Source of the DNA: an uncultured Bacteroidota bacterium
GTDB lineage: Bacteria > Bacteroidota > Bacteroidia > Bacteroidales > UBA10428
Length of the DNA: 64,000 bases
Reading direction: 5' to 3'
NCBI GenBank assembly: GCA_963733535.1
Contig: CAVTDR010000002.1
Span: forward strand, 512,910 to 576,909
The notes below the pieces were generated by a model. That model was given only the letters and a program-made list of their open reading frames with translations, had not been told where the DNA came from and did no database searches. This document shows, in pieces, positions 41,348-45,024 of this stretch (positions are counted from its first letter, which is position 1; the number at the start of each line of letters is the position of its first letter). A program made the position numbers and the translations under genes.

Positions 41348-41546
41348 GTTGGTTTTGTTTCCCTATAAAAATAATGATTTTTCGATTCACAACTATAATT
41401 TACTTCAAATGGATCGGTACAACCAATAGCTGTTAAGTTAAGATAGTATTTTATGCCATTTTTAGGAATAATTCATTATGGATTTTCCCTGAAATTCGTC
41501 GAACACTTTGCCCTGTAAGGCATACGCGTCAACCTAATTCCATTAA

Positions 41547-41735
41547 TTATTTGTTTAATAAGGATTTAGAAGGCTTGATTCGTTTAAGTACAAATGTGTT
41601 TTTGTCTTCAATAAACCATTCCATTTCTTCACCTTTTTCTATTTCACCTGCTTCAGCAATTGCAGCTGGAAAATTTATATAAAATGATTTTGTTGAACCT
41701 CTTTCAACACGTTGGATTTTGATTTTGTATCCCAT
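41547..41735 (-). CDS. Small AbrB/MazE-like (swapped-hairpin) putative DNA-binding protein carried inside the IS
   Basis: 62 aa: IKIQRVERGSTKSFYINFPAAIAEAGEIEKGEEMEWFIEDKNTFVLKRIKP. It is divergent from the transposase gene. Confidence 0.45.
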   Translation of the reverse strand: MGYKIKIQRVERGSTKSFYINFPAAIAEAGEIEKGEEMEWFIEDKNTFVLKRIKPSKSLLNK

Positions 41736-41890
41736 TTTTTATTATATATAAAAGTATATATACTATGTTTTATTAAAAAAGTTTATTAAAATGATAAAAA
41801 AACCCTCTGACTTCAGCAAAAGCTGATTCGTTAAATTTAAGCCATATTCCATTTCAAGAACTCAGAAAAATAGCCTTTGAATGTGGTTTT

Positions 41891-43126
41891 ATGAAAAGGC
41901 AAAGTAAAAAGATTGATCCAGCTTCATTTTTAGCTGACATATGTTTTACCTCCATTGCCGGTTCACCCAGCTTTAATGACCTTGCCGCACATCATCATGC
42001 ACAATATAACATATGTGCAAGTAAACAAGCATTTTGGAAACGCGTTAACACGCCTTGTGTCATTTTTTTACAATCTATTCTTGCATATATTCTTAAAAGA
42101 AGATGCGACAAAGAGCATATACATACTCTAATTAAAGCGGGTTCCTATAAAAGAGTTATTATACAAGATAGCACTATCATTAAATTACCTCTGCGTTTAT
42201 TTGATATTTTCTCAGGTGTTTCTAATTCCCACACTTCTGTCTGCAATGCCCGGATTCAGTGCATATACGAACTATTATCAGGTCGGTTTTTATCATTTTC
42301 CATCGATCCTTATAGCAAAAACGATGTAACAGCAGCTCCCGAATTAGAGTTAGAAAAAGGCGACCTTGTTTTAAGAGACCGGGGATATAGCTGTAACGAT
42401 GAGATACGCCGTCATACCAAATCAGGCGCTGATTGCATTTTTCGTCATAAATTCAAATCTACCTATACTCATCCGCATAATGGGAAGACTATCCATATGG
42501 TATCGCTGTTGAAAAAACATAATAATTTGGATATGCAAGTTTGTTTGTCCGATGATGAAAAAACGAAAGTACGGCTAATTGCAATACCTGTCAATCCAGA
42601 AATTGCCAATCTTAGGAGAATGAAAGCAAAGAAAGAAATGAGGGGTCATAATCCCTCTAATGACTTATTATTTCTTATGTCCTGGACTATTTTTATTACT
42701 ACAATACCCCAATCAAAAGCTGATACAAATAAAATCCTTCAGATTTATAGAATAAGATGGAGAATCGAAAACATGTTTAAAATGTTTAAAAGTCACATGA
42801 ACTTTAGTAAAATCCATAATGTGTCTTTAATGCAACTTAATATACTAATGACAGCAAGACTTATCATGATTGTCTCTTATATACACCTGATTTATACACC
42901 TTGTTATTCCTTAATCCTTATCAAGTATGGCAGGCACTTAAGCCTGCTAAAATTTTGTAATTATTTAATGAATAACGGCAACAAAATGATTGATTTGCTA
43001 AAACATTGGCGTGTAATTAACAATTATGTGATTCCCGAAATTTATTCAATAATACGGTATTGCGCATATGACAAACGAAAACGACTGAACTTCAATATGT
43101 TCATAGAAAATACCTTCTTAAGTTGA
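41891..43126 (+). CDS. IS4-family DDE transposase
   Basis: 411 aa with D (IIQDSTIIKL), D (LVLRDRGYS) and the Y-2-R-3-E-6-K signature YRIRWRIENMFKMFK. Confidence 0.9.
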   Translation: MKRQSKKIDPASFLADICFTSIAGSPSFNDLAAHHHAQYNICASKQAFWKRVNTPCVIFLQSILAYILKRRCDKEHIHTLIKAGSYKRVIIQDSTIIKLPLRLFDIFSGVSNSHTSVCNARIQCIYELLSGRFLSFSIDPYSKNDVTAAPELELEKGDLVLRDRGYSCNDEIRRHTKSGADCIFRHKFKSTYTHPHNGKTIHMVSLLKKHNNLDMQVCLSDDEKTKVRLIAIPVNPEIANLRRMKAKKEMRGHNPSNDLLFLMSWTIFITTIPQSKADTNKILQIYRIRWRIENMFKMFKSHMNFSKIHNVSLMQLNILMTARLIMIVSYIHLIYTPCYSLILIKYGRHLSLLKFCNYLMNNGNKMIDLLKHWRVINNYVIPEIYSIIRYCAYDKRKRLNFNMFIENTFLS

Positions 43127-43134
43127 CGCATATG

Positions 43135-43210
43135 CCTGTAAGGGCTTTAAGCAAAAGGATAGGGCAATCGCCCTATTTTACAGGGAATAATGACCACTAG
43201 CCCTGTAAGG
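43135..43210 (+). repeat. Segment of the REP-like element lying between the two IS copies
   Basis: aagcaaaaggatagggcaatcgccctatttta matches the reverse complement of about 15334-15370, flanked by the half-palindromes. Confidence 0.8.
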
Positions 43211-43236
43211 CATACGCGTCAACCTAATTCCATTAA

Positions 43237-43425
43237 TTATTTGTTTAATAAGGATTTAGAAGGCTTGATTCGTTTAAGTACAAATGTGTTTTTGTCTTCA
43301 ATAAACCATTCCATTTCTTCACCTTTTTCTATTTCACCTGCTTCAGCAATTGCAGCTGGAAAATTTATATAAAATGATTTTGTTGAACCTCTTTCAACAC
43401 GTTGGATTTTGATTTTGTATCCCAT
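43237..43425 (-). CDS. Small AbrB/MazE-like putative DNA-binding protein (IS passenger, copy 2)
   Basis: Identical 62-aa ORF. Confidence 0.45.
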   Translation of the reverse strand: MGYKIKIQRVERGSTKSFYINFPAAIAEAGEIEKGEEMEWFIEDKNTFVLKRIKPSKSLLNK

Positions 43426-43580
43426 TTTTTATTATATATAAAAGTATATATACTATGTTTTATTAAAAAAGTTTATTAAAATGATAAAAAAACCCTCTGA
43501 CTTCAGCAAAAGCTGATTCGTTAAATTTAAGCCATATTCCATTTCAAGAACTCAGAAAAATAGCCTTTGAATGTGGTTTT

Positions 43581-44816
43581 ATGAAAAGGCAAAGTAAAAA
43601 GATTGATCCAGCTTCATTTTTAGCTGACATATGTTTTACCTCCATTGCCGGTTCACCCAGCTTTAATGACCTTGCCGCACATCATCATGCACAATATAAC
43701 ATATGTGCAAGTAAACAAGCATTTTGGAAACGCGTTAACACGCCTTGTGTCATTTTTTTACAATCTATTCTTGCATATATTCTTAAAAGAAGATGCGACA
43801 AAGAGCATATACATACTCTAATTAAAGCGGGTTCCTATAAAAGAGTTATTATACAAGATAGCACTATCATTAAATTACCTCTGCGTTTATTTGATATTTT
43901 CTCAGGTGTTTCTAATTCCCACACTTCTGTCTGCAATGCCCGGATTCAGTGCATATACGAACTATTATCAGGTCGGTTTTTATCATTTTCCATCGATCCT
44001 TATAGCAAAAACGATGTAACAGCAGCTCCCGAATTAGAGTTAGAAAAAGGCGACCTTGTTTTAAGAGACCGGGGATATAGCTGTAACGATGAGATACGCC
44101 GTCATACCAAATCAGGCGCTGATTGCATTTTTCGTCATAAATTCAAATCTACCTATACTCATCCGCATAATGGGAAGACTATCCATATGGTATCGCTGTT
44201 GAAAAAACATAATAATTTGGATATGCAAGTTTGTTTGTCCGATGATGAAAAAACGAAAGTACGGCTAATTGCAATACCTGTCAATCCAGAAATTGCCAAT
44301 CTTAGGAGAATGAAAGCAAAGAAAGAAATGAGGGGTCATAATCCCTCTAATGACTTATTATTTCTTATGTCCTGGACTATTTTTATTACTACAATACCCC
44401 AATCAAAAGCTGATACAAATAAAATCCTTCAGATTTATAGAATAAGATGGAGAATCGAAAACATGTTTAAAATGTTTAAAAGTCACATGAACTTTAGTAA
44501 AATCCATAATGTGTCTTTAATGCAACTTAATATACTAATGACAGCAAGACTTATCATGATTGTCTCTTATATACACCTGATTTATACACCTTGTTATTCC
44601 TTAATCCTTATCAAGTATGGCAGGCACTTAAGCCTGCTAAAATTTTGTAATTATTTAATGAATAACGGCAACAAAATGATTGATTTGCTAAAACATTGGC
44701 GTGTAATTAACAATTATGTGATTCCCGAAATTTATTCAATAATACGGTATTGCGCATATGACAAACGAAAACGACTGAACTTCAATATGTTCATAGAAAA
44801 TACCTTCTTAAGTTGA
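43581..44816 (+). CDS. IS4-family DDE transposase (copy 2)
   Basis: Identical 411-aa ORF. Confidence 0.9.
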   Translation: MKRQSKKIDPASFLADICFTSIAGSPSFNDLAAHHHAQYNICASKQAFWKRVNTPCVIFLQSILAYILKRRCDKEHIHTLIKAGSYKRVIIQDSTIIKLPLRLFDIFSGVSNSHTSVCNARIQCIYELLSGRFLSFSIDPYSKNDVTAAPELELEKGDLVLRDRGYSCNDEIRRHTKSGADCIFRHKFKSTYTHPHNGKTIHMVSLLKKHNNLDMQVCLSDDEKTKVRLIAIPVNPEIANLRRMKAKKEMRGHNPSNDLLFLMSWTIFITTIPQSKADTNKILQIYRIRWRIENMFKMFKSHMNFSKIHNVSLMQLNILMTARLIMIVSYIHLIYTPCYSLILIKYGRHLSLLKFCNYLMNNGNKMIDLLKHWRVINNYVIPEIYSIIRYCAYDKRKRLNFNMFIENTFLS

Positions 44817-44824
44817 CGCATATG

Positions 44825-45024
44825 CCTGTAAGGGCGGAAGCAAGCTAAGTTGATTGATTTCAATAATGAATGGTTACGATTCGTAATGAATACAATATTT
44901 ATATGATCTGAAATATCTAATAGATCAGGGTAAATGTGCTGTTGCCCTTACAGGGCATTTGATAATTGCGTATAAAACAAATAGGGCGATGCCCTATCCT
45001 AGTGCTCAGGCCCTTTCAGGGCAA
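44825..45024 (+). repeat. Right-hand part of the IS-interrupted REP-like element
   Basis: Collinear with the reverse complement of 15147-15345 (ggaagcaagctaag ... agtgctcaggccctttcagggcaa). Confidence 0.85.

Follow-up and report, generated by a model that had tools for sequence, protein, structure and literature searches.

The stretch of DNA analyzed here (the window) spans 64,000 nucleotides, positions 512,910 to 576,909 of contig CAVTDR010000002.1, and belongs to the 4.49-Mb genome assembly (16 contigs) of an uncultured Bacteroidales bacterium. It carries two copies of an insertion sequence (IS) that, judged by its sequence, is a member of the IS4 family. The copies lie 76 bp apart, in direct orientation and in neighboring palindromes. 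Each encodes a DDE transposase and, divergently, a 62-aa open reading frame (ORF), and together they interrupt a repeat that we assign to a family of miniature inverted-repeat transposable elements (MITEs), MITE-A, with four palindromes named P1 to P4. The features of the locus, including the target-site duplications (TSDs) and the left and right inverted repeats (IRL and IRR), are as follows.

41425-45056, no strand: degenerate, right-truncated MITE-A copy, interrupted by both IS copies
41510-41520, plus strand: left part of P1, GCCCTGTAAGG, including the left TSD copy CCTGTAAGG (41512-41520)
41521-43134, plus strand: IS copy 1, 1614 bp, with IRL CATACGCGTCAAC and IRR GTTGACGCATATG; one of ten full-length genomic copies
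41547-41735, minus strand: 62-aa ORF of IS copy 1, putatively AbrB/MazE-like, divergent from the transposase gene
41891-43126, plus strand: transposase gene of IS copy 1, 411-aa DDE protein with the Y-2-R-3-E-6-K motif YRIRWRIENMFKMFK
43135-43145, plus strand: right TSD copy CCTGTAAGG followed by GC, completing P1
43146-43199, no strand: P1-P2 spacer of the MITE core, 54 bp, containing the hairpin TAGGGCaatcGCCCTA
43200-43210, plus strand: left part of P2, including the left TSD copy (43202-43210)
43211-44824, plus strand: IS copy 2, 1614 bp, 100% identical to copy 1
43237-43425, minus strand: 62-aa small ORF of IS copy 2
43581-44816, plus strand: transposase gene of IS copy 2
44825-44835, plus strand: right TSD copy CCTGTAAGG followed by GC, completing P2
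44944-44956, no strand: P3, GCCCTTACAGGGC, vacant, of the preferred loop type; its minus strand is the same 13-mer as P1 and P2
45010-45022, no strand: P4, GCCCTTTCAGGGC, vacant, of a loop type never used by this IS in the genome
15147-15385, minus strand: uninterrupted paralogous MITE-A core, the empty-site reference

Both copies end in the terminal inverted repeats (TIRs) CATACGCGTCAAC and CATATGCGTCAAC, the second being the right end reverse-complemented, and each is bracketed by its own pair of 9-bp repeats (41512-41520/43135-43143 and 43202-43210/44825-44833). Excision of an IS with one repeat copy regenerates the 13-bp palindrome GCCCTGTAAGGGC at either site, and in all of this the preliminary description of the window, made by reading its letters, was correct to the base. 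The identical runs measure exactly 1636 bp (41510-43145 and 43200-44835), with the next base differing on both sides, and the spacer between them occurs a single time in the window. Without its two IS copies, the locus is collinear in alignment with 15120-15420 read as the reverse complement, where the paralogue bears GCCCTGAAGGGGC and GCCCTGGACGGGGC at the two matching places; the collinearity of spacer and right flank with this element, already pointed out in the preliminary description, is therefore confirmed. The best explanation overall, and in our judgment a likely one, is that one active IS4-family element inserted twice, independently, into adjacent copies of its preferred palindrome, both located within the core of an old MITE.

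Target sites across the genome and in relatives

The genome contains ten full-length copies of the IS, 99.6-100% identical and all internal to long contigs. Every one of them sits at the same offset within GCCCTnnnAGGGC and has duplicated the sequence CCTnnnAGG. This IS inserts only at the center of (G)CCCTnnnAGGG(C), in either orientation and with sensitivity to the central bases. The loops at the ten occupied sites are GTA/TAC (six) or GTC/GAC (four), both IS orientations relative to the loop occur at one site type, and asymmetric sites (CCTGAAGGG) are among those used. Since flank similarity among the copies is confined to at most about 240 bp of repeat, they represent separate loci. Intact GCCCTNNNAGGGC is present 81 times in the genome, compared with about one occurrence expected, and its loops are GAA/TTC at 44 sites, GTA/TAC at 33 and GAC/GTC at two. 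The bare motif CCTNNNAGG occurs 765 times (642 expected), and none of the ten insertions lies outside the GCCC..GGGC context. Occupancy also depends on the loop, with 0 of 44 GAA sites filled versus 10 of 45 GTM sites (Fisher p=0.0011). Chance placement is excluded because target sites amount to about 2e-5 of genome positions, while eight or more independent insertions all fall within one. Purifying selection alone was considered as the cause of the pattern and rejected, single-base precision being beyond what selection could achieve.

That the target is duplicated upon insertion is directly proven by a second MITE family, MITE-B: when an intact MITE-B is aligned with an occupied one, the segments 1-106 and 98-244 overlap by 9 bp. 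IS copies c9 and c6 show one-base mismatches between their TSDs. We also considered that CCTnnnAGG might be part of the inverted repeat of the IS, the left end and the reverse-complemented right end matching over 24 bp with four mismatches, and rejected this because the central triplet is direct, varies with the host palindrome and is single in intact MITE-B.

Relatives belonging to five lineages (P0003, P0100, P0057, P0077 and P0225) were recovered from metagenomes and metagenome-assembled genomes (MAGs). In the first four, the transposases are 86%, 52%, 53% and 54% identical, respectively, to that of the studied IS, and the ends CATRCGCGTCAAC...GTTGACGCGTATG are kept in all five. At informative junctions, with contigs that break off 2-4 bases past the IS set aside, CCYnnnRGG ends the left flank in 16 of 16 cases and begins the right flank in 22 of 22 for P0003, P0100, P0057 and P0077; loci of the P0225 lineage show the same junctions. 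Concordant 9-bp TSDs (CCTGAAAGG, CCTTTCAGG and CCTGACAGG) could be read on five contigs. The conservation of both ends and junctions implies that the specificity belongs to the clade and not to a single genome, and the earlier proposal that the IS selects the palindrome thus holds in the genome-wide census and in all five metagenomic lineages. The P0100 lineage uses GAA/TTC centers, which the studied IS avoids; this may reflect a lineage-specific reading of the center, or merely the palindromes offered by its host. The transposase search of genome contigs returned no confirmed relative. On JGI contigs L049-L051, the IS4 transposase gene of a relative is itself split by an IS21-type element (Mu-transposase C-terminal domain plus IstB), which is another nested insertion.

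The element and the repeats it enters

The 411-aa protein matches PF01609 (DDE_Tnp_1) with 74.9 bits and the NCBIfam model NF033592 "IS4 family transposase" with a score of 152.9 (cut-off 115), so that the family assignment made in the preliminary description stands. The criteria for IS4-family ends and TSDs and the end signatures of its subgroups have been published (PMC2266710; TIR and TSD criteria in Table 1). The transposase possesses the DDE triad and the Y(2)R(3)E(6)K motif, the TIRs start with 5'-CA, and the 9-bp TSD falls within the 8-13 bp of the family, which correspond to about one helical turn. Moreover, the end signature of the IS231 subgroup, CAT-------AA--TAA---, is found at both ends, with AA at 11-12 and TAA at 15-17, and, among named transposases of the plasmid collection, those of IS231A/C/F and ISBth5 come closest (~25% identity, E down to 6e-20). 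Because the TSD is 9 bp instead of 10-12 bp and transposase identity is ~25% where >50% is often seen within the subgroup, the element lies outside the IS231 subgroup in its strict sense, and its sequence points to a distant sister clade.

While "single orf encoded transposases" are a hallmark of the IS4 family (PMC2266710), a divergent ORF of 62-66 aa is kept in all relatives examined. This second ORF is a departure from the usual IS4 layout that leaves the classification of the transposase unaffected. It sits 26 bp inside the left IS end, and its product is 74-95% identical in relatives whose transposases share 52-86%. A search for homologues of the small ORF returned 966, nearly all on IS-sized contigs. 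The protein matches PF04014 weakly (E=1e-3), and the top Foldseek matches of its predicted model (pLDDT 81.5) are all of the AbrB/MazE/SpoVT type, at non-significant values (best E=0.09). Profile and model are thus consistent, if weakly so, with an AbrB/MazE/SpoVT swapped-hairpin domain. Between the small ORF and the transposase gene lies a divergent intergenic stretch of 155 bp that is AT-rich and palindromic. The ten IS copies vary at 11 positions in all, four of which (IS positions 228, 232, 241 and 248; window 41748-41768 and 43438-43458) are A<->T changes clustered there; this may represent promoter/operator variation or a mutational hot spot. Outside the IS, an HTCS-MCP fusion gene (38039-41347, minus strand) has the left IS end 173 bp upstream of its start codon. 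The small ORF of copy 1 is directed outward, in the same direction as this gene, and ends 26 bp from the IS end, so that read-through from the IS into the HTCS-MCP gene is possible.

As for the target, the palindromes of the genome are grouped in composites of two types, A and B, which correspond to the two MITE families. The reference elements on other contigs are the following.

C8:62509-62988: intact MITE-A, TIRs CATAGCCGTCAAGCTAAG, 9-bp TSD GGCTGTGCG
C8:142833-143076 and C8:193648-193891: intact MITE-B copies, 244 bp, TIRs CATCGCCGTCAACTTAAG and CATAGCCGTCAACTTAAG
C6:1980467-1982051: IS-B, a second, single-copy IS4-family element, 1585 bp, perfect TIRs CATAGCCGTCAACTTAAG

MITE-A is ~480 bp long, and its center, the type A core, consists of four GCCCTnnnAGGGC palindromes (P1 GAA, P2 GTA, P3 TAC and P4 TTC at 0, 66, 187 and 254) and two TAGGGCnnnGCCCTA hairpins. 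Stripped of its IS copies, the window locus aligns with 83% identity to positions 96-479 of the intact MITE-A, its P1 being a GTA variant. By this alignment, what the preliminary description called a REP-like element (REP, repetitive extragenic palindrome) is the palindrome-rich core of a degenerate, truncated MITE-A with IS231-like terminal repeats. Both MITE families are non-coding, bounded by TSDs and equipped with TIRs like those of an autonomous IS of the genome; these TIRs resemble the ends of both IS-B and the studied IS (common CGTCAACTTAAG). MITE-B is bounded by TSDs of 9-11 bp situated in palindromes of a second family (GTAGTT..AACTAC, GAAGTT..AACTTC). Recent mobilization is suggested by the 100% identity of several of its copies. 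IS-B has an 11-bp TSD, GTTATGAAAAC, at the center of the palindrome GGCGTAGTT..AACTACGCC, lacks a small ORF and encodes a transposase 27% identical to the one studied here. IS-B looks like the autonomous counterpart of MITE-B and perhaps also that of MITE-A.

The REP label may nevertheless retain part of its meaning, because the palindromes also occur beside Y1/RAYT-like genes (RAYT, REP-associated tyrosine transposase). They are short, GC-rich, imperfect and strongly over-represented, and at the window locus, where this was surveyed, they are extragenic. On metagenome contig L022, a Y1 (IS200-like) gene stands between an array of three GCCCTGAAAGGGC and one of three GCCCTTTCAGGGC, and a 52%-identical relative of the IS occupies an additional GCCCTGAAAGGGC that borders the former array on its outside, with CCTGAAAGG duplicated. 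The region L022:1692-2520 (JGI) is a textbook Y1-transposase/REP cluster, its opposite-side arrays being interleaved with second hairpins such as CAGGGTGCAGCCCTG. In the genome of the window, a Y1 gene (C6:1854708-1855200) has one perfect and one degenerate palindrome on its two sides. A RAYT gene at C8:193000-193602 (L004:1369-1971; NF047646, 93.9 bits, cut-off 80) is flanked by GAAGTT..AACTTC and GTAGT..ACTAC palindromes of the second REP family, one of which, ~45 bp downstream of the gene, has received a MITE-B copy. We rejected this RAYT as the owner of the GCCCT palindromes, because those adjacent to it belong to the MITE-B copy inserted in the GAAGTT..AACTTC palindrome.

The target motif is enriched in some same-genus genomes only (48, 42, 24 ... 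versus 0-5), and none of 40 related genomes (24 of the same genus) contains a close copy of the studied IS. The target must therefore be older than the IS, which is, on this genome comparison, a recent arrival that has since been amplified. Orthologous loci in six same-genus genomes have neither palindromes nor TIRs, indicating that the MITE is lineage-specific.

Origin of the pair and recognition of the palindrome

No nucleotide differs between the two window copies, and each of the remaining copies is at least 2 nt away from them, which makes the two sister copies. One would be the product of a 1.7-kb hop of the other into the adjacent palindrome, with the donor copy kept. Several points weigh against two independent, palindrome-directed insertions. 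The junctions of an empty P1 and an empty P2 were not found by exact-match scans of metagenome contigs, and the left and right flanks disagree on many of the metagenomic contigs, which are probably assembly chimeras across a repeat. Copies c4/c7 and c5/c10 lie within near-identical MITE-B copies and could have spread as MITE::IS composites, reducing the number of independent events to about eight. The loop preference is partly confounded with position, GAA being found mostly in the outer P1/P4 and GTA mostly in the inner P2/P3 of the MITE, and the available data fit neither duplex nor hairpin recognition uniquely. Finally, the tandem is read from an assembly, in 16 contigs, of a genome with ten near-identical 1.6-kb repeats, where a multi-copy repeat might be misplaced. 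We nonetheless consider it very unlikely that the arrangement is such an artefact. The structure is coherent, with two proper TSDs and a spacer matching the P1-P2 spacer of the MITE family, and the position of all ten copies inside long contigs points to a long-read assembly. Furthermore, the genome contains what looks like a product of recombination within such a pair, or of adjacent deletion: in copy c5 (C2:93908-95521), the left end lies in palindrome 2 of a MITE-B, the right end lies in palindrome 1 at the matching position, and the 58 bp between the two positions are missing. A pair made by tandem duplication, unequal crossing-over or gene conversion of a single IS-bearing unit would readily account for copies that are 100% identical, in direct orientation and 76 bp apart. 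Unequal exchange between P1 and P2, however, would leave the 54-bp spacer twice, and since the spacer is single a 1690-bp tandem duplication is excluded. In addition, identity ends exactly at the borders of the 13-mer, each copy possesses a full TSD of its own, uninterrupted paralogues match the flanks collinearly, and conversion would be limited to 11 bp of flank homology. A common origin in one duplicated unit is thus extremely unlikely, and the separate insertions proposed in the preliminary description are upheld by the 1636-bp repeat, the single spacer and the individual TSDs.

For two independent insertions, we propose that a two-fold symmetric transposase complex would read both CCCY half-sites, and partly the center, on duplex DNA, with strand transfers staggered by 9 bp. 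This would be an unusually stringent form of the model, with staggered cuts in a palindromic target, put forward for Tn10, Tn5 and IS231A. The preliminary description had left recognition between sequence and hairpin, and it is the hairpin that loses ground. A transposase that reads an extruded hairpin or cruciform would explain why the targets are, without exception, GC stems of 4-5 bp, perfect or nearly so, that enclose a loop of 3-5 nt, and why targets with CCC...GGG instead of CCT...AGG alter both arms jointly, and hairpins have been invoked in the discussion of REP-targeting IS elements. We find it quite improbable, however, since a 5-bp stem with a 3-nt loop makes a very poor cruciform, loop sequence counts despite the identical stems of GAA and GTA sites (0/44 versus 10/45 GTM), asymmetric sites serve as targets, the two orientations are equally used, and a TSD needs staggered joining to both strands of a duplex; arm covariation is inherent to natural palindromes and hence not diagnostic. 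Tn5 and Tn10 transposases, moreover, capture duplex targets. Orientations, symmetric 9-bp stagger and loop discrimination all fit a duplex reading. Target choice might instead lie with the second gene, the 62-aa AbrB/MazE-like protein binding or bending the CCCTnnnAGGG palindrome and bringing the transpososome there. The small ORF is present in every relative examined, is conserved beyond the transposase (74-95% versus 52-86%), in parallel with the conserved target and IS ends, and AbrB/MazE folds form DNA-binding dimers, the fold being assigned here only tentatively. Against such a role, IS-B and MITE-B insert at palindrome centers in the same genome yet have no such ORF, IS231A does likewise with no second ORF (IS4-family elements being described as single-ORF), and a site beside an AT-rich divergent promoter region fits a repressor. 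We therefore judge a targeting protein unlikely. Because IS-B/MITE-B and IS231A reach palindrome centers without one, the small protein would most likely be a regulator of the divergent promoter region, or of transposition, and not a target chooser.

Significance and comparison with known systems

For the duplex-reading transposase that we favor, a plain 411-aa DDE cut-and-paste enzyme can be near site-specific for the center of an 11-13-bp palindrome, and this strictness holds in relatives sharing only about half of the transposase residues. Such targeting gives the IS a safe haven within other repeats (REPs and MITE cores) and yields nested mobile elements. Closely spaced direct IS repeats can delete intervening DNA, and two 1.6-kb direct repeats 76 bp apart, as in the window, are a deletion substrate. 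For annotation, the targeting explains palindrome clusters as IS hot spots and as assembly breaks in Bacteroidales MAGs; for tool building, a compact sequence-specific transposase with a lineage-specific center preference is tractable for studying, and perhaps altering, target choice. The clade is large, with >1400 transposase homologues and ~970 small-ORF homologues, mostly from uncultured Bacteroidota-type metagenomes. There is an outside chance that it is an undescribed two-gene IS4 clade in which a dimeric AbrB/MazE-like protein is an integral component of transposition, binding or bending the CCCYnnnRGGG palindrome or the IS ends and licensing strict insertion. If true, such a protein would amount to a dedicated subunit for targeting or licensing, within a family otherwise believed to act by transposase alone. 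We found no paper joining IS4 elements to an AbrB-like gene, or to palindrome targeting in Bacteroidota.

The natural target of IS231A is the terminal repeat of another transposon, Tn4430. The IS231 elements of the Bacillus cereus group are the closest named relatives of our element by transposase and fit it by end signature, and they share with it a palindromic target with G/C-triplet arms, which for IS231A is GGGNNNNNCCC (GGGN5CCC; PMC2577343). They also have non-autonomous derivatives with the same ends, MIC231 (PMC2266710), and IS231 with its MIC231 cassettes resembles the set of MITE-A/B and IS-B in the studied genome. IS231 differs, however, in its TSD (10-12 bp, compared with a strict 9 bp), its target polarity (GGG..CCC instead of CCC..GGG), an identity typically >50% within the subgroup where the studied transposase reaches ~25%, its single ORF and its Firmicutes host. 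ISRm22 of Sinorhizobium meliloti, another DDE element of the IS4 family, has all its copies at the axis of palindromy of REPs, and the imperfect repeats seen at three of the nine copies on its chromosome are ascribed to recombination between IS copies or to adjacent deletion (PMC1525189). The studied IS resembles it in these respects, namely the placement of all copies in the axis of a GC-rich REP palindrome and a minority of imperfect repeats. In contrast, ISRm22 belongs to the IS4Sa subgroup, has other ends, an alphaproteobacterial host and no reported second ORF, and is set apart by its description; its repeats are 6 bp long (Tobes and Pareja), against 9 bp here. De Palmenaer et al. noted a "spectacular" specificity for ISRm22 and some elements of the IS4 subgroup, and target specificity for IS231 (PMC2266710).

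Tn10/IS10 and Tn5/IS50 share with the studied IS a 9-bp TSD, a symmetric consensus within and beyond the TSD (GNNGCTNAGCNNC and AGNTYWRANCT, respectively) and the use of both orientations. Theirs is, however, a hot-spot preference with many off-consensus insertions, whereas all ten copies and the informative junctions obey an 11-13-bp motif here. Outside the IS4 family, IS1397/ISKpn1 (IS3), ISPa11, ISPpu9/10 and IS621 (IS110) likewise insert at a fixed position in a repeated extragenic palindrome; unlike our element, the REP-targeting IS110 members employ a bridge/seek RNA and a DEDD recombinase, and the IS3 members generate 3-bp repeats. By its function the studied IS belongs with the REP-targeting elements, its ten copies all cutting the palindrome at one position and leaving fragments on both sides, as do its relatives. 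Palindrome targeting by IS4 elements is already known behavior, and the novelty for this family implied in the preliminary description gives way to the published cases of ISRm22 (PMC1525189) and IS231A (PMC2577343). What is new, for an element that may already have been named, is the host lineage (uncultured Bacteroidales), the stringency and its conservation throughout the clade, the nesting in MITEs with related termini and the conserved second gene.

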